DNA of 64,000 bases from Candidatus Hermodarchaeota archaeon (GCA_048885525.1 JBHLLP010000014.1:1-64000), one strand, 5' to 3'; shown: positions 4,651-14,719, counted from the first letter of the stretch. Notes: generated by a model not told the origin, from the letters alone. Numbers and translations are program-made.

Positions 4651-5394
4651 ATGAGCTCAGAATTTTTATATATTGGGCATAGAGGAACAAGAACTAATTT
4701 TGATGAAAATACAATAGAGGCTTTTAAAAAAGCTTCAGAATTTGGAGCAACTTATATTGAATTTGATGTTCGAAAAACAAAAGACGAAAAATTCATAATT
4801 ATGCATGATGCAACTTTAGATAGAACAACAAATGGTTCAGGATTACTAAACAATTTAAAATATAACGAAATCGATAAGATCAAAACTAAAATTCATAATT
4901 GTCCTATTCCCCTCTTATCAGATGTTTTGAAGGAATTAAAAGGATCAGTAAAGTATATGATCGAGTTAAAGGATGATGATTTAAAAGACAAAATTCCGAA
5001 AATAGTTAAAAAATATAACTTATTAGAAGAAAGCATTTTTAGTGGACGGAATTTAAAGGATTTACAATACATAAAACAAGCGTATCCTAAAAATCAAATA
5101 TGTTATAATATCACTAAAGGGTTAGGATTTAAAATCAATGAATTCTTGAAAATTGGGAGGTTAAAACAATTAGAATTTAAACCAGATTTAATAAGTTTAA
5201 GATCGAATCTAATATCAAAAGAATTTGTTGAAATTTGTCATGATAATGAAATTAAATCTTTAGCATGGGATTTTATCTCTTATGAAGATCCAATAGTATA
5301 TATTAAATCTTTAATTAAATTAGGAATTGATGGAATTTTATTTGATGATTATAGAAATATCCCAAAAATTAAGGATTGGGTTAATACAAATTAA
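4651..5394 (+). CDS. glycerophosphodiester phosphodiesterase
   Basis: IGHRG, ENTIEAF, IEFDV...TKD and HDATLDRTT motifs. Confidence 0.9.
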   Translation: MSSEFLYIGHRGTRTNFDENTIEAFKKASEFGATYIEFDVRKTKDEKFIIMHDATLDRTTNGSGLLNNLKYNEIDKIKTKIHNCPIPLLSDVLKELKGSVKYMIELKDDDLKDKIPKIVKKYNLLEESIFSGRNLKDLQYIKQAYPKNQICYNITKGLGFKINEFLKIGRLKQLEFKPDLISLRSNLISKEFVEICHDNEIKSLAWDFISYEDPIVYIKSLIKLGIDGILFDDYRNIPKIKDWVNTN

Positions 5395-7451
5395 TTATTT
5401 TCCTTAATCCTTGAAAATCCGCTAGGTATATGAAGAATAATCTCATCTAGAGATAATAATTTTACCCATTTCTTTGATTCTTTATCAATTTTTTTAATGA
5501 AATAAGATTTAATATCTTTAGCTAATTTTCCTTTAGTAAGACCACTTGTTTTTGAGGGGATAATATTTATAATATTTTTTGTTTGTTTTTTTATTGCTAA
5601 CTCTGGACCCGAAATGATCTTAGGGAAAAAAATTTTACGATTATCCTGAAATTCTGCTTTCAATTCAATAATTTTTAATCCTATAGTTAACTCTGTTTTA
5701 GCATTTTTTACAAAATTTTTTTTACCAGTGATTATAAAAGAACCTTTAGATAAAAATTCGCCTGATGGGGGGCTTTTTGAAATCTGATTTGGGAATACAT
5801 AAAATACATCAACAACACCCCAATTTTCTTTCCATGCCCTTGAATAACTAGCAACAAAATCAGCAGTTTCGTGAATAGTATTTAAGGGAATATTTTTTTC
5901 TTCTGAATTTTTTAGTACTGCTAACGGAGAACCAGGGAAGTTCGTATGAAAGACTAAATCTTTTGCATCTATATAATTTTTAAAAATAATTTCATTAGAT
6001 GTGGCATCTCTACCTCCTATAATTAGAAACCCATCAGAAGATATGAACCATCTGAACTTTTCGTACCATTTTTTCTTTGGTTTTTTTATTAGGAAATCAA
6101 CACCAATTTCTATTGATTCTTTTTCAATTTTTAATTTATCGATTTTATCTTTAGTTTTTTCTATAGCTGTTATAGTTCCTTTAATTTTTTTTTCTGCTTT
6201 TTTCCCTTTGGAATAAATATCATTAGCATTTTGCCCAATGCTCTTTTTTAAATTAATGTAAACAGGATCATTGTTAAATTTTATTAATATCTGATTATTA
6301 GAAGGAATCAAATTTTCATAGAATTCAGTTCCATTTAAATTCTGTAATTTAGCTACTTGTAGTCTTTTACTAATTTCTTCCCATTGATACCCCTTCTTCT
6401 TAGCTTCCAATATTACTGAATATAATTTTTCTAAGGAATTTAAGTTAGCATATATTAAGTCTCCGATATTGTAATACTTTTCCTTCTTGTTCTTAAGCTC
6501 TTCAAGATATTCTTGTTGATTTTTTAATATTTTTTTTTGAGTTTTAATTTGATTATCAATTTCTTGATCTTTTGGTTTCTTTAAAGCTTCAGAATCAATT
6601 TTTGAAAAATATTCATCAACAGCTTCATTGAATGTTGCAAAATCCTTTTTTTCAAATTCTTTAAGAATTTCAATTTCAAATGGAATTACCGATATTTGAT
6701 TTCCTTGCTGATCAAAAACAATTTGTGCATTGTTTTTACCAAATAATAATTGATTTCTTAAATTTTTGAAAGAATCATATAAATTCTGATATTCTATGTC
6801 AGAGAGATCTCGTCCGAGACGTTGTTTATTAATCTTAGCCCTATGGCATATTTCCTCACTATATAGTCCTGAAATGTGAACATTCCTGGATAGATCCCTT
6901 ACAATCTCAACTTCAGAATTTTTAAATAAAGCTTTAAATTCATCTTTATTTAAAGTTAGAAAATTCTTGCCTGGAGATTTAGGAAAGAAATACTCTTTTT
7001 GAGGAAGTACTACCCTATCTCTAAATTTTCTATATTTCTTAGCAATTCTAAGGACATTTTTTTCATCCAATAATAGAAAATTTCCCTTATTAAATAATTC
7101 TACAACAAACCTCCAAGGAAGATGTTCTTTATTACTTAGCTCAAATATGATAATTCTATCAAATTGGTGTTGTGAAATTTTTAAAATTCTTCTATTTTTT
7201 AAAAATTTCCTTAGAGAACGTATATATTGACTAGGATAATTTGGTATTGGATAATCATAATCCGTTAAATTAATTCGAGAGTCTTTTTTAATGATTAAAT
7301 TTTTCTTTCCAAAATTAGTATTGATTTTTAGTATCAATAAATCTTCTATTTCGTATACATTTTGAATTGTACCATTAATCAATATGGAGGCTAATTCTTT
7401 AACAATCGCGTATACGTCAAAGTTAGAAAATTCTTTTGCTGGTTTAATCAT
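5391..7451 (-). CDS. rqcH: ribosome quality control protein RqcH (NEMF/NFACT family)
   Basis: LRKFL...FDRII, VELF.KGN, WYEKFRWF.SSDG, GGRDATSNE and PPSGEFL.KGSF motifs. Confidence 0.9.
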   Translation of the reverse strand: MIKPAKEFSNFDVYAIVKELASILINGTIQNVYEIEDLLILKINTNFGKKNLIIKKDSRINLTDYDYPIPNYPSQYIRSLRKFLKNRRILKISQHQFDRIIIFELSNKEHLPWRFVVELFNKGNFLLLDEKNVLRIAKKYRKFRDRVVLPQKEYFFPKSPGKNFLTLNKDEFKALFKNSEVEIVRDLSRNVHISGLYSEEICHRAKINKQRLGRDLSDIEYQNLYDSFKNLRNQLLFGKNNAQIVFDQQGNQISVIPFEIEILKEFEKKDFATFNEAVDEYFSKIDSEALKKPKDQEIDNQIKTQKKILKNQQEYLEELKNKKEKYYNIGDLIYANLNSLEKLYSVILEAKKKGYQWEEISKRLQVAKLQNLNGTEFYENLIPSNNQILIKFNNDPVYINLKKSIGQNANDIYSKGKKAEKKIKGTITAIEKTKDKIDKLKIEKESIEIGVDFLIKKPKKKWYEKFRWFISSDGFLIIGGRDATSNEIIFKNYIDAKDLVFHTNFPGSPLAVLKNSEEKNIPLNTIHETADFVASYSRAWKENWGVVDVFYVFPNQISKSPPSGEFLSKGSFIITGKKNFVKNAKTELTIGLKIIELKAEFQDNRKIFFPKIISGPELAIKKQTKNIINIIPSKTSGLTKGKLAKDIKSYFIKKIDKESKKWVKLLSLDEIILHIPSGFSRIKENN

Positions 7452-9858: not shown

Positions 9859-11262
9859 CTAAAATTGAGATTCATCAATTATAGGCATATCTTTTGAAGC
9901 TAGTGTTTTTTGAATTTCATTAGTAGGTAATTCATAATCTGCTAAATTGCCAGTCATATATTCCTTATAGGCTAACAAATCAAAAAATCCATGACCACTA
10001 AGGTTAAATAAAATTACTTTCTTTTCATTATTTTCTTTAGCTTTCAAAGCTTGATCAATTGTTTCTTTTATTGCATGAGCAGCTTCTGGTGCAGGAAGAA
10101 TTCCTTCAGCTTTTGCAAATTGCAAACCTGCTCTAATTACTTCAGTTTGATGATGCATTGTGGCTCTAATAATTTTTTTATTGTTTAAAATTGAAATAAT
10201 AGGTGCAATTCCATGATATCTTAATCCTCCTGCATGAATTGGACTAGGGATAAATGAATGTCCTAAAGTATGCATCTTAACTATAGGTCCTTTCATTGAT
10301 GAATCTCCATAATCCCATCTATAATCTCCTTTACATACACTTGGACACGCTCGAGGTTCTACACCAATTATTTCAATATTCGGAGTTTTTCCGTTGAGTT
10401 TATCTCTGACAAATGGAATAACCATACCAGCAAAATTAGAACCACCTCCCATACAACCTATTATTATATCTGGTTCTTTAATCCCTACTTTCATCAATTG
10501 AATTTTTGTTTCTTGTCCTATTATTGTTTGATGTAGAAGAACAAAATTTACAACGCTTCCAAGAGAATATTTTATTTTATTACTTCTCATACTATGCTCT
10601 AGTGCTTCTGATATTGCGATACCTAAACTTCCTGGATGTTTAGGATCTTTTTCTAAGAAAGACAATCCGGATTCAGTTAGTTTTGAAGGGCTGGCATGAA
10701 CTTCAGCATTAAAAGATCTCATTAGTATTTTTCTACCCGGTTTTTGCAAAAAACTTGCTCTAACCATATAAACAGAGCATTTTAAACTAAATAGATTACA
10801 TCCATAAGCTAAACCCGAACCCCATTGTCCTGCACCAGTTTCAGTAACTAACTCTTCTGTTCCTTCCATTTTCGCATAATATGCTTGAGTTATAGCAGTA
10901 TTAGGCTTGTGAGAACCTGTAGGAGATAATGATTCATTTTTAAAAAATATTTTAATATTCTCACCTCCTATGCCTAATTCTTTTTCTAAACCTAAAGCAC
11001 GATGAAGAGGACTAGGTCTATATGTATTTGCGAAAATCTCCCTTAATTTATTAGGAATGGGTATCGTAGGCTCTTGAGAGCCTTCTTGAATTACACATTC
11101 TTTAGGAAATATAGCGAATGCCATTTCTGGTGGTGCTGGCTTCCCGTCCATTGGATTAATTAAGGGCGTCATGGGAGTGGGTAAATCTGGTAAAATATTT
11201 ACCCATTCTTTTGGTATTTCATTAGGTTGTAAAACAATTCTTCCATTAAAATAATCTACCAT
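9859..11262 (-). CDS. trpB2: tryptophan synthase beta chain, type 2
   Basis: PTGSHKPNTA (PLP lysine), TETGAGQWGS, GGGSNFAG, HAGGLRYHG and FNLSGHG; no trpA alongside. Confidence 0.95.
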   Translation of the reverse strand: MVDYFNGRIVLQPNEIPKEWVNILPDLPTPMTPLINPMDGKPAPPEMAFAIFPKECVIQEGSQEPTIPIPNKLREIFANTYRPSPLHRALGLEKELGIGGENIKIFFKNESLSPTGSHKPNTAITQAYYAKMEGTEELVTETGAGQWGSGLAYGCNLFSLKCSVYMVRASFLQKPGRKILMRSFNAEVHASPSKLTESGLSFLEKDPKHPGSLGIAISEALEHSMRSNKIKYSLGSVVNFVLLHQTIIGQETKIQLMKVGIKEPDIIIGCMGGGSNFAGMVIPFVRDKLNGKTPNIEIIGVEPRACPSVCKGDYRWDYGDSSMKGPIVKMHTLGHSFIPSPIHAGGLRYHGIAPIISILNNKKIIRATMHHQTEVIRAGLQFAKAEGILPAPEAAHAIKETIDQALKAKENNEKKVILFNLSGHGFFDLLAYKEYMTGNLADYELPTNEIQKTLASKDMPIIDESQF

Positions 11263-11444
11263 TTTATTTACCTTTTTTTAATTTACTTTTACACATCTTA
11301 TAATGTGTTTCATTAACATGTTGGAATTCAACTAAATTAATGCCCATTTAGAAAGAGATTTTAATATTTTGAGAAAACATATTAAAATGAAAAAATAAGA
11401 CTAAATAAGATCCATTGCAAGTGACACTATTGCCACTGCCACGG
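11263..11444 (-). promoter_or_regulatory. structured trpB2 leader, putative attenuator
   Basis: Hairpin 11412-11444 (CCGUGGCAGUGGCA-AUAG-UGUCACUUGCAAUGG) covers Trp codons and the stop. U6 tract at 11390-11395, perfect 10-bp inverted repeat at 11358-11388, further inverted repeats at about 11312-11342 and 11291-11308. Confidence 0.55.
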
Positions 11445-11477
11445 CCACTGCCAATTAATTCTTCTTACAGTTGCCAT
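11427..11477 (-). CDS. putative Trp-rich leader peptide MATVRRINWQWPWQWQ
   Basis: ATG GCA ACT GTA AGA AGA ATT AAT TGG CAG TGG CCG TGG CAG TGG CAA TAG: four Trp codons in the last eight sense codons, same strand as trpB2 and 164 nt upstream of it. Confidence 0.75.
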   Translation of the reverse strand: MATVRRINWQWPWQWQ

Positions 11478-11643
11478 AATTGTAAATAAAAAGGTTATCA
11501 TGTATATTATTTTAAATATATAATCGTAAATAAAAACCTATTTATTTTTCCTTCAAAATATCATGATATTTTAAATTCTATACTTTTTGATATGAATCCA
11601 TTAAAACATAGTTATTAAAAACTGACTATAAAGATAAAGAGAA

Positions 11644-12048
11644 CTAGCGTCCTTCAAAAATTTTATAAAGATTTTTTGCTGCAATTCTCATAACTTTTAC
11701 TGTCTTCATGAGGGTATCAATAATAGTTCCAGCACATACAATCACTAACCTTCCAGCATTAGTTATAACAATATAACCATTTTCAGCCCTCACTATTATC
11801 TCACTTAAATCTTCTTGGAATAAAGTTTGAATTGTTGATTTCCCCGTCATTAATAAAGCACTGGCAAGTCCGCAGAATTGATCACCATCAACATGATATT
11901 GTGGTAAAGCAGAGAAAGCTATTTGATATCCTTCAAAACTTACAAGCGCAATCGCTTCAATATCGGCATTTGAGGTTATAAAAGTAATTTGAGGACTTAT
12001 TTTTTCAATATCCTCTTGATTTATTCCTAAATCAGACCCAAATTGAAT
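11644..12048 (-). CDS. roadblock/LC7 (MglB/LAMTOR-like) protein, probable ATT start
   Basis: The 68-aa track ORF extends in frame to (M)QFGSDLG...DIEAIALVSFEGYQIAFSAL...FCGLASALL. An SD-like AGGTG lies 7 nt before ATT at 12048, with an in-frame TAA just upstream. Confidence 0.8.
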   Translation of the reverse strand: MQFGSDLGINQEDIEKISPQITFITSNADIEAIALVSFEGYQIAFSALPQYHVDGDQFCGLASALLMTGKSTIQTLFQEDLSEIIVRAENGYIVITNAGRLVIVCAGTIIDTLMKTVKVMRIAAKNLYKIFEGR

Positions 12049-12412
12049 AAGTCTACACCTTTAGTGCTTTAAGTTTTTATAAATATTATTATAAATATAA
12101 TAATTTTTATCTTATTATATTTTTATTTTTAACATTTGAAGTTTATTTTAAAGTGAAATATAATTCTCTAACTTTTATTATTTTATGAATTTAATAGAAA
12201 GAATTTTCTCAATAACTTAATTTAATATAAATAAATTTATTCTATTATGTTTCAATCGATTACTTTATTTACTGTTCAAAAGTAAATTTTAATATTTTAT
12301 AATCTTAACAATATTTAAAACACCCTTTGAATTTTTTAAAGGTTTGAGAATAATTACATAGTATTTATGCTCTATTGATTTAATAATTAGGAATTATTTA
12401 TAAAAATTAATT

Positions 12413-14719
12413 ATGATAACAACACGAGAATCGATAAGTTACCAATTTTCATTGATATTTGGATATTCATCCCCAGATGACGTTATTGCTGGAGATGTAA
12501 TTGGTCCCGGGAAATTAACAAGAAAAAAAGTAAATGAACTTTCCAAAGAAGTCATTAAATACTTAACAATGTACAATGCAATTTTAAGGGATTACGCTGG
12601 AGCAGAAGTATTTAGTATAGAGTTTGAATTATACAACTTTGATGAAAAAAGTGCTCGAATTAATATTTATCCCCAATCAATGATTTTTATACCTGGAAAA
12701 TTTAAAGATTGTGAAAGTTTACTGCTTGCTTTAAAACCAGAATCTGGAGTTTTAGATATACACAAATCTAGAGAATCACTGAACAATATAAGTAAATTAT
12801 TTTTTGAAGTAGAGGAGTTCACTAATCGTCCAGAATTAAAGAAAGAAGAAAAACAACTGGTTTTTAACAAATTTGCCTCTAGATTTAGTAAAAAACTCTT
12901 TGGAGAACTCATAGAAGACAAATGGAATAAAAAACTAATTGGTATAAGTAAAGCTCTCCCAACAGAAAAGGACATGTTGAATATATATGCAAAAATTATA
13001 ACTGACATTGAAGTATTATGGTCTAAAAAACCTATGGAGATCAATTTATTAAATCCAAAATTACAGAAGATTAAGACTCCATTCGAAGGACAGCAAGCTA
13101 TTGAACATCTTAAATATTCAATATCAGAACCAAGTGTTAATTTTATCGTTGATAAAACTTTAAAATTAGGAACTAATCTCATTAATTTAGCAAATACGGG
13201 AACTTTAGATGAAACTCAAGATGAAGTAGTACTTTTTATTATCGATTATATAAGTAAAAAAACCAAAGAAATTAGCGATTTTTATACTGCTGAATGGTTA
13301 ATCTCCAAAATAAACAATTGGTTAATCGATCTACAAGGATATTTGAATAAATTCTTAGAATATTCTAGAAATTTTCTTAATACAGGAGAAATAGGAAATC
13401 TAGATGAACTACTCAACAAATTTGAACATTATATTTTAAATATAGGAAAATTAGAAAGTGTAGATTTTAATGATATCTGTAAAATAGCAAAAAAATATAT
13501 TGAAGAGACATTAATTCAAAAACAAAGTTTGCGAATAATAGAATTGAGTTCAGTTTTCAATTATTTTACTGAAATTATCAAAAAAAATCTTGAATTAATA
13601 AGAATTTCTCTCCCTAAATATCTTTCTTATCGCAGATTAAAAACTCTGACAATGACATTAATCGAAAACTTACATAAAAAGTTTAATAATGAACAAAAAC
13701 CAGCAAAAATTTTAGGTCAGAAATTAATAGGAGAATTTAAAGCTTATATTTTTAATCAGATTGAAACTCATTCATTTCTATTAAAGAAGGAAGTTAAATA
13801 TAACGAAAAAGAACTCATAAATGAATTTATTCAATTAATCGATCAAAATATTAATGATTTCTTTAACAATATAAAGTTGAAAATAGATGATTTGGTAGTT
13901 TTTGCCGAAATTCAAATGGAAACCAATACAAAAATAATAAAGGAACATTTAGATAAATTCAGAAAATATTCAAGAGAATTACATTTTCTATTGAGTTATG
14001 TTTTGAGACATTCTACAATTAATCGTTATATCAAAGAGGAACCTGATCAAGAAATTAGTGATCCTGTGACATTTTCAAATAGATTTTATAGGTTTTTAGA
14101 AAAAAGAATAGGTGGAATAAACTTGGAATGGAAATTCTATGTATTAGAGTGGATAAGAGACTATTCCAAGAAATTTCTTAAACCTGAAGAACAAAAGATA
14201 TGGACATTAACTGAAATTTATCATGATTTTGTAGGATATTTTGAAGAGAGAGAATCAGAAGAGCAACAAGTTGAAAATTTTTTACCATTCTTAGATCAGT
14301 ATATTACAAAACTTTCTGATATTGGAGAAAAAAATGTATTACTTGATTTTTATAAAAAATTTGCATATAGTTTGGATATTACCATAGAATTTCCAAAATA
14401 TGTTAAAAATAATATTAAAAATGAGCTGAACAGTCTCAATCCTCAATCAGAAAAAAATATCCCTTTTAATTATTTTAGTCTAAATGAAAATGAGTCATTC
14501 TATAATTATGTCAAGAATATGGAATTAAAATACTTCTCAAAATTAATACCAAGGCCATCAACTGTGACTTTAAAACATATTTTAACAAACGAAGAAAAAG
14601 AACTATTTAAAGGAGACCTTTTTCATATAATTGATTTCAAATTCTGGCATAATAATGCTCGATTCGAATTATCAGATAATTTTAAAGAAGTTTATCGAGA
14701 ATGGGTGAAAGATCTATGA
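12413..14719 (+). CDS. large hypothetical protein, mostly alpha-helical
   Basis: 768-aa ORF, no motif recognised. Confidence 0.7.
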   Translation: MITTRESISYQFSLIFGYSSPDDVIAGDVIGPGKLTRKKVNELSKEVIKYLTMYNAILRDYAGAEVFSIEFELYNFDEKSARINIYPQSMIFIPGKFKDCESLLLALKPESGVLDIHKSRESLNNISKLFFEVEEFTNRPELKKEEKQLVFNKFASRFSKKLFGELIEDKWNKKLIGISKALPTEKDMLNIYAKIITDIEVLWSKKPMEINLLNPKLQKIKTPFEGQQAIEHLKYSISEPSVNFIVDKTLKLGTNLINLANTGTLDETQDEVVLFIIDYISKKTKEISDFYTAEWLISKINNWLIDLQGYLNKFLEYSRNFLNTGEIGNLDELLNKFEHYILNIGKLESVDFNDICKIAKKYIEETLIQKQSLRIIELSSVFNYFTEIIKKNLELIRISLPKYLSYRRLKTLTMTLIENLHKKFNNEQKPAKILGQKLIGEFKAYIFNQIETHSFLLKKEVKYNEKELINEFIQLIDQNINDFFNNIKLKIDDLVVFAEIQMETNTKIIKEHLDKFRKYSRELHFLLSYVLRHSTINRYIKEEPDQEISDPVTFSNRFYRFLEKRIGGINLEWKFYVLEWIRDYSKKFLKPEEQKIWTLTEIYHDFVGYFEERESEEQQVENFLPFLDQYITKLSDIGEKNVLLDFYKKFAYSLDITIEFPKYVKNNIKNELNSLNPQSEKNIPFNYFSLNENESFYNYVKNMELKYFSKLIPRPSTVTLKHILTNEEKELFKGDLFHIIDFKFWHNNARFELSDNFKEVYREWVKDL

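Follow-up and report, generated by a model that had tools for sequence, protein, structure and literature searches.

An upstream open reading frame (ORF) rich in Trp codons, followed by a series of RNA hairpins, precedes the trpB2 gene in the 64,000-nucleotide stretch of archaeal DNA analyzed here (the window). Comparative data indicate that this leader ORF and the structured RNA are real, that they are conserved, and that they are linked to the tryptophan pathway. We consider it very likely that the leader serves as a sensor, while the output step remains unproven. Our favored interpretation, held with moderate confidence, is that the element is a cis-acting leader-peptide sensor of Trp, wherein a stalled ribosome blocks a hairpin and thus permits read-through into trpB2. 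Translation of the ORF, ribosome stalling as the signal, the direction of control, and termination as the output are all inferred without transcript or ribosome data; the public sequencing runs located were DNA only, from sediment and soil metagenomes.

The leader ORF is located on the minus strand at positions 11427 to 11477, beginning with an ATG at 11477 and ending with a TAG stop codon at 11429-11427. Its 16 sense codons encode a peptide whose C-terminal end reads W-Q-W-P-W-Q-W-Q. The four in-frame UGG codons, which together span 11433 to 11453, are leader codons 9, 11, 13, and 15 (11453-51, 11447-45, 11441-39, and 11435-33). A distance of 164 nt separates the leader stop codon from the ATG of trpB2 at position 11262. 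The patch from 11412 to 11453 has a G+C content of 57% versus 19% for the remaining intergenic region. An earlier, sequence-only reading of this DNA had described the 16-codon leader with its four TGG codons 164 nt upstream of trpB2, the GC-rich patch in an AT-rich spacer, and a hairpin at 11444-11412 whose loop includes the stop codon and which precedes a U-rich run, and each of these features was confirmed.

The promoter assignment made in that reading requires revision. The proposed TATA-like sequence TATATTTAAA is indeed present at 11511-11520 (minus strand), but it is not conserved in relatives. The element that is conserved in genus alignments is a different TATA-box-like sequence, TTTTTATTTA, at 11527-11536 (minus strand), approximately 50 nt upstream of the leader ATG. 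Based on the archaeal TATA consensus, we infer that TTTTTATTTA is the putative promoter of a leader-trpB2 transcript, although its function has not been shown. Within 520 nt, relatives with higher G+C content have a TATA-like motif only at 30-52 nt upstream of the leader ATG; the interval from the leader to the gene contains none. Because the sole TATA-like motif lies upstream of the leader, the leader is predicted to be the first ORF of the trp transcript, and this arrangement speaks against the trp gene having its own promoter farther downstream. Directly upstream of the leader region is another short ORF (11644-11850, minus strand) with a weak match to Roadblock/LC7 proteins. The end of a Roadblock/LC7-like gene also precedes the leader region at four other loci (L032, L033, L127, and L131), and the neighborhood is therefore conserved.

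TrpB2 was found in 16 of the 24 other genomes sampled from the genus, which together with the window's own locus provides 17 loci for comparison. Loss of the in-frame Trp codons in relatives had been named in advance as an outcome that would refute the attenuator interpretation. This outcome was not encountered: the ATG, the in-frame TGG codons, and the stop codon are kept at 17 of 17 genus loci, and leaders are found across Asgard families. Within the genus, leader codons 2-8 vary freely, and the stop codon follows the last TGG by one or two codons, except in one sequence in which the interval is seven. Insertions and deletions in these leaders include a 6-nt gain that adds Trp-Cys (four genomes) and a 6-nt loss that removes Pro-Trp (one genome). 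The 164-nt spacer between the leader and trpB2 is likewise conserved across the genus. One locus (L011, genome G013) carries a 1-nt deletion after W-P-W-R that shifts the reading frame, such that the leader ends seven codons later, with four Trp codons intact ahead of the deletion.

With 4429 short ORFs present in the intergenic windows of the source genome alone, it is reasonable to ask whether this leader is merely a chance ORF in an A+T-rich spacer. However, among 2201 intergenic upstream windows of this genome, at least three Trp codons within the last 10 codons of a short ORF occur only once, at the trpB2 leader. Even short ORFs with two Trp codons near their end are found in only 13 of these windows (0.6%). 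These values, the preservation of the leader at every genus locus, its phylum-wide conservation, and the covariation of the RNA structure described below refute a chance origin, which we regard as having almost no remaining probability. The exact or near motif was found once in the source genome. Likewise, DNA searches with an 81-nt query yielded one match per genome, each adjoining a trp gene.

Several other candidates from the source genome were rejected. A W-rich frame on contig C9 at position 98594 is off-frame within an amino-acid permease gene, another preceding an MFS transporter gene is off-frame within the end of a histone-like gene, and a third preceding a gene for a PPC-domain protein also proved to be a false lead. 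The suggestion that equivalent leaders might exist for other amino acids was not borne out in this genome. The best His-, Met-, and Thr-rich short ORFs precede genes for Kelch, unknown, and DsbA-like proteins, and these ORFs are taken as chance occurrences.

Wider surveys place the leader among trp genes of Asgard archaea. In a set of 80 TrpB2 loci from bacteria and archaea, an automatic test was passed by two, one of which is from an Asgard genome, and two more Asgard leaders in the same set were recognized by eye. Among 83 upstream regions of Asgard trp genes, 43 carry a short frame with at least three Trp codons in its last 14 codons. These counts are not independent trials, given that the genomes are related. 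Nevertheless, the leaders recur across families in which they cannot be aligned and precede two different genes, a distribution that appears hard to explain otherwise.

Conservation of TGG codons alone cannot distinguish a coding sequence from an RNA motif, because Trp has no synonymous codon and because UGGC pairs with GCCA in the first hairpin. Thus, it remains conceivable, although in our estimation improbable, that the UGG-rich stretch is untranslated and serves as an RNA or DNA motif, made up of UGGC repeats and hairpins, for a protein that responds to Trp, for example a TrpY-like repressor on the DNA or a TRAP-like protein on the RNA, with the reading frame as a by-product. Consistent with this alternative, conservation of the TGG triplets is indistinguishable from simple nucleotide conservation, distant families share the nucleotide pattern TGG-NCT-TGG-C, and no Shine-Dalgarno motif precedes the leader ATG in the window's genus. 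A Shine-Dalgarno-like motif is seen at this position in several relatives, however, and the spacing of the triplets follows the reading frame: over the final 14 codons preceding the stop in the 43 Asgard leaders, 162 TGG triplets are in frame versus five out of frame. An in-frame start codon is always found upstream of the first Trp codon (ATG in 38 of the 43 leaders, and GTG or TTG in the other five), and a stop codon follows within a few codons. Lengths of the Asgard leader ORFs cluster at 16-18 codons, and ORF length is maintained despite sequence divergence. For example, loci L026 and L030 have diverged in sequence but are equal in leader length and Trp positions. Insertions and deletions occur in multiples of three nucleotides, and the number and spacing of Trp residues vary (W-x-W, WW, and W-x-x-W) in a manner that fits no single binding site. 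Furthermore, the clusters of TGG are specific to one strand, numbering 99 in the sense and 16 in the antisense direction, contrary to what would be expected of a palindromic DNA operator.

The association with tryptophan genes extends well beyond the genus. In the order's other families, W-x-W, WW, or W-x5-W is found near the stop codon of a short ORF at every trpB2 locus with enough upstream sequence, and one complete genome of this order (G032) is among those that carry the leader. Overall, trpB2 is preceded by W-rich short ORFs in families f1-f5, f7, f8, f11, f20, f22, f26, and f31, and an additional 40 Asgard trpB2 loci revealed such frames in f1, f5, f7, f8, f11, f20, f22, f26, and f31. 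No W-rich frame was seen at the sampled trpB2 loci of f12, f13, f16, f23, f25, and f32. A named Borrarchaeum record also carries a leader, with four Trp codons. The second gene preceded by such leaders is trpD. Within the order, trpD (Pfam-confirmed) is immediately preceded by a W-rich short ORF and followed by trpC-trpF in four operons, and such an ORF is also found at eight of eight further phylum loci that have a noncoding region before trpD. A W-rich short ORF is present upstream of trpD in all 14 trp operons in which trpD is the first gene. One genome carries nearly identical leader tails before trpB2 and before the trp operon (L031 and L117).

The sister genus g17, from the same family, provides a particularly close comparison. 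There, the leader, the first hairpin, the sequence CAUUGG, and the third and fourth hairpins are alignable as DNA but are located upstream of trpD-trpC-trpF, whereas the sampled trpB2 gene of this genus (L132) is without a leader. Similarly, genera g12 (L127) and g16 (L131) have no leader ORF upstream of trpB2 and instead carry a W-rich leader before trpD. The element therefore tracks tryptophan biosynthesis rather than chromosomal neighborhood. In L131, the region upstream of trpB2 retains a remnant of the 3′ arm of the first hairpin along with the third and fourth hairpins, making this locus a naturally occurring Trp-codon deletion.

The presumed target gene in the window, trpB2 (9859-11262, minus strand), codes for a TrpB-like PLP enzyme of 467 amino acids that matches the NCBIfam profile NF009057 ("TrpB-like PLP enzyme") with 618 bits, well above the cut-off of 366. 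The closest named TrpB2 records are from Promethearchaeota (Asgard) metagenome-assembled genomes (MAGs), which agrees with the prior assignment of this DNA to an Asgard host. The source genome, of which the window represents contig 14, is 3.58 Mb in length, 99.3% complete, and 29% G+C. Whole-genome searches produced no match for TrpA, TrpC (indole-glycerol-phosphate synthase), TrpD, a chorismate-binding TrpE, or the canonical TrpB1, whereas the same searches gave matches in 14 of 14 control genomes. TrpB2 is therefore the sole trp enzyme found in the host genome, and its role here is presumably that of an indole-salvage Trp synthase. On the basis of this gene content, the host looks like a Trp auxotroph that can salvage indole plus serine. 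As the only trp enzyme found, TrpB2 would be a natural target for Trp-dependent control. The gene for Trp-tRNA synthetase in this genome (C12:36994) has no leader.

RNA folding and the genus alignment indicate that four hairpins are formed by the leader end and the spacer. In this alignment, 89.7% of cells in the four-hairpin structure are paired, compared to 30-42% after the partners are slid by one to three columns. Eleven pairs are altered on both sides, and the observed values were reached by none of 500 shuffles. The first hairpin, HP1 (11412-11444, minus strand), has a predicted free energy of -13.8 kcal/mol (z = -3.06 against shuffles) and is interrupted by a bulge. Its 5′ arm is formed by leader codons 12-16 (Pro, Trp, Gln, Trp, and Gln), its AUAG loop contains the stop codon, and its 3′ arm continues into a conserved CAAUGG sequence. 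Covariation within this hairpin had been proposed as a test of its relevance, and compensatory changes are indeed found in the genus at alignment pairs 80-100, 81-98, and 82-97. At these pairs, the codon that varies between Trp codons three and four changes in step with the 3′ arm. Across all lineages, structure around the stop codon is only modestly above that of shuffled sequences (mean z of -1.28), which weighs against the proposed mechanism.

Immediately downstream of HP1 is a U-rich run (11385-11412, minus strand) that includes U6 at 11390-11395 and constitutes a candidate termination region. At least five consecutive T residues are present at the U-rich position in 14 of 17 genus sequences, and the best-conserved U6 sits 17-22 nt past the HP1 stem. 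In the source genome, T6 is found in 24% of the 40-nt 3′ flanks of genes versus 16% for A6, which is only a slight enrichment. Because T runs are common in a genome with 29% G+C, the U6 is weak evidence when considered alone.

The remainder of the spacer is also structured. Hairpin HP2 (11358-11388, minus strand) is an A+U-rich stem of 10 base pairs, with changes on both sides in five of its nine aligned pairs. A possible outer helix predicted between 11401-11409 and 11343-11351 (minus strand, spanning 11343-11409 overall) would enclose both U6 and HP2, but its support is weak, with a single covarying pair (G-C to A-U) and three mismatching sequences. Hairpin HP3 (11311-11342, minus strand), identified by folding and alignment, has a two-part stem and a strongly conserved loop region, and a compensatory A-U to G-C replacement distinguishes its trpB2-linked copies from those linked to trpD. 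Hairpin HP4 (11291-11308, minus strand) includes alignment pair 231-238, which is C-G in eight sequences and U-A in seven. The best-conserved part of the spacer is formed by HP3 and HP4 near trpB2 (11291-11342), rather than by the leader. These two hairpins travel with the cassette to trpD, and they persist in L131 after loss of the leader.

The arrangement of these parts suggests how the element might operate. Transcription is predicted to start approximately 25 nt upstream of the leader ATG, and a ribosome would then translate the 16-codon leader ORF. When charged tRNA-Trp is plentiful, the ribosome would pass the four UGG codons, terminate at the UAG codon, and leave the RNA. HP1 would then be free to form, most transcripts would end in the U-rich stretch, and little trpB2 mRNA would be made. 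In contrast, when charged tRNA-Trp is scarce, the ribosome would stall on the UGG codons and cover the 5′ arm of HP1, and with this hairpin blocked, RNA polymerase would continue into trpB2. Stalling at any one of the last three UGG codons would be enough to place the ribosome over the HP1 5′ arm, whereas a ribosome that has finished translation and departed would leave this arm exposed. The direction of control, with scarcity of Trp leading to more expression, is inferred because the target genes are biosynthetic. The same layout, with Trp codons in the last eight or so codons, then a hairpin, and then U-rich sequence, is invariant across lineages. Specifically, the last Trp codons form the hairpin 5′ arm and the stop codon lies in the loop in the window's genus and at loci L022, L024, L020, L033, and L065. 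Family f2 instead has a long stem whose base takes in the last UGG along with the stop codon and whose 3′ end runs directly into UUUU, giving the appearance of an intrinsic terminator.

No antiterminator could be identified. When the columns predicted to be covered by a ribosome were forced open in RNAalifold, no new helix emerged in the genus consensus and HP2 through HP4 were unchanged. Given that no alternative helix was obtained, the switch would be the formation of HP1 itself rather than an alternation of terminator and antiterminator. A consensus scan of the genus for bacterial-type terminators was silent at the leader, but scans of this type, like those for sigma-70 promoters, are uninformative for an archaeon. 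Masking of the ribosome-binding site of trpB2 was also evaluated. A Shine-Dalgarno-like AGGU (11270-11273, minus strand) is located 7 nt upstream of the trpB2 ATG, and the long-range pairing that would sequester it occurs only in the fold of the window's own sequence and is not conserved. Because this site is unpaired in the consensus structure, translational unmasking is disfavored. The most economical reading of the output is that the stalled ribosome occludes a hairpin that promotes termination.

There are aspects of this preferred output that cannot be fully reconciled at present. Archaeal RNA polymerase terminates at oligo-U tracts without a hairpin, and thus the relevance of HP1 is not explained. 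The gap of 17-22 nt separating HP1 from the U6, the frequency of T runs in this genome, and the silent terminator scan are further weak points. An orthologue of the termination factor aCPSF1/FttA is present in the host genome, but a model resting on polarity alone would give no regulation, because the spacer is untranslated in both states. Conservation, covariation, and linkage to trp genes support the original proposal of a Trp attenuator, whereas its termination step, its role for FttA, and its direction of control all remain inferences.

Given these uncertainties, a serious rival is that the same sensor has a post-transcriptional output, although we view this as a minority possibility. A stalled ribosome could shield the 5′ end of the RNA from 5′-to-3′ exonucleases of the aRNase J or aCPSF2 type, or could alter processing or folding of the leader through HP2-HP4, and more TrpB2 protein would result. 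Stalled ribosomes are known to stabilize ermC mRNA in Bacillus. Neither an antiterminator nor a canonical terminator was found in the genus, as this alternative would permit, and HP3 and HP4, being conserved, mobile with the cassette, and able to outlive the leader in L131, are likely to have a role of their own. However, the unpaired AGGU leaves no masked ribosome-binding site to be relieved, and the f2 hairpin with its abutting U tract resembles a terminator.

Sensing of charged tRNA-Trp by the preferred mechanism can also be weighed against recognition of free tryptophan by the nascent peptide, as occurs with TnaC. In such an arrangement, a W-rich arrest peptide together with tryptophan would stall the ribosome at or close to the stop codon, and expression would rise when Trp is abundant, the reverse of the preferred logic. 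The leaders have some features that might be expected of arrest peptides, since Trp is found within one to three codons of the stop in most of them, W-P-W is strongly kept, and the leaders of family f11 have a Gly-Pro-rich tail. Nonetheless, we find this scheme very improbable for the element as a whole. The target genes, trpB2 and the trpD operon, are biosynthetic and not catabolic, and several clustered regulatory codons are a hallmark of tRNA-charging sensing. Moreover, Trp is the only residue enriched at every position from -2 to -9, while other residues vary widely between families.

The f11 leaders (L148, L165, and L166) are located approximately 110-120 nt upstream of trpB2 and share a conserved W-x-W-G-P-x-G-P-V tail. 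Because this Gly-Pro-rich end recalls arrest peptides, f11 may use a different mode of sensing.

Compared to known systems, the Asgard element resembles the enterobacterial trpL leader (RF00513), which likewise has a short upstream ORF whose UGG codons are grouped shortly ahead of the stop, hairpins that overlap the ORF end, and a U-rich tract before the first structural gene. However, the Asgard element lacks sequence or structure similarity to RF00513 and has no 2:3 antiterminator. A scan of positions 10800-12500 with Rfam covariance models (E values up to 10) produced no match to RF00513 (Trp_leader) and only four weak hits to unrelated families. The Asgard leader has four alternating Trp codons rather than the two adjacent ones of trpL, and it functions, if our interpretation is correct, in an archaeal host whose polymerase and termination signals and factors (oligo-U and aCPSF1/FttA) differ from those of bacteria. 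E. coli tnaC shares a short leader in which Trp content matters and a ribosome near the stop codon that controls downstream factor-dependent termination. Distinct from the Asgard leaders, tnaC senses free Trp via its nascent peptide, switches on the catabolic tryptophanase operon, and relies on a single critical Trp.

The characterized system of archaeal trp control is the TrpY repressor of Methanothermobacter, a DNA-binding protein that acts on palindromic TRP boxes at the promoter. TrpY and the Asgard element are alike in that archaeal trp genes are regulated in response to Trp, whereas the Asgard element is strand-specific, is in frame, and lies downstream of the TATA-like motif.

Bacterial systems with more extensive use of such leaders provide additional parallels. 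Trp operons of actinobacteria such as Corynebacterium and Streptomyces are preceded by leaders in which UGG is repeated two or three times, with a second trp locus of the same genome among the examples, and the Trp codons contribute to complementary triples of the GGCC/GCC type (Seliverstov et al. 2005, PMC1262725). These attenuators share UGG-repeat leaders before trp genes with the Asgard element, but they are bacterial and have G+C-rich terminators with poly-U and clear antiterminators. In mycobacteria, polycysteine short ORFs precede several loci for Cys metabolism and form a "Cys ribulon," in which a stalled ribosome blocks one RNA duplex without a classical terminator/antiterminator pair (Canestrari et al., bioRxiv 10.1101/834739). 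The Asgard leaders are similar to this design in their simplicity and regulon-wide spread, but differ in that no consensus pairing involves the ribosome-binding site of trpB2.

By analogy, we lean on balance toward the view that the Asgard phylum possesses a portable "Trp ribulon" that links the pace of the ribosome to completion of the transcript by a Pol II-like polymerase, and that this is the first case of leader-peptide attenuation in archaea. The switch would operate by ribosome occlusion of a hairpin without an antiterminator, and its readout could be hairpin-assisted oligo-U termination or termination by aCPSF1/FttA. Textbooks present leader-peptide attenuation as a model case of transcription-translation coupling, and the mechanism has been considered a bacterial one. 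In full-text searches of the literature, we found no report of leader-peptide attenuation of trp genes in archaea, although general statements that upstream ORFs act in archaea have been made (PMC10219788). A conserved Trp leader in Asgard archaea would show that the ribosome is used as an amino-acid sensor in archaea, that transcription and translation are functionally coupled in the lineage nearest to eukaryotes, and that hairpins in RNA can influence the behavior of a Pol II-like archaeal polymerase or of its termination factor. The cassette would also offer a compact and testable probe of archaeal termination, and it could serve to mark uncultured Lokiarchaeia that are Trp auxotrophs and salvage indole.

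Several additional short ORFs were encountered during these surveys. At L113 (positions 5316-5396) in genome G024, which belongs to the window's genus, a short ORF with three Trp codons follows trpG and precedes a gene for a GNAT-methyltransferase fusion. This ORF resembles the trpD leaders of g16 and may be a relic of a rearranged operon or may precede a further Trp-controlled gene; it was left out of the trp-leader counts. A second W-containing short ORF in genome G039 (L114:10549-10632, minus strand) lies approximately 400 nt upstream of the trp-operon leader and has its own TATA-like motif and G+C hairpin, so the two could represent tandem leaders or the second could be a separate small unit. 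Finally, a bacterial TrpB2 locus from an Ignavibacteriales MAG (L100:1324-1392) carries a short ORF ending in H-T-W-P-W-R-R. Its W-P-W core is the same at the nucleotide level as that of the Asgard leaders, which could reflect either convergence or transfer of the gene together with its leader.
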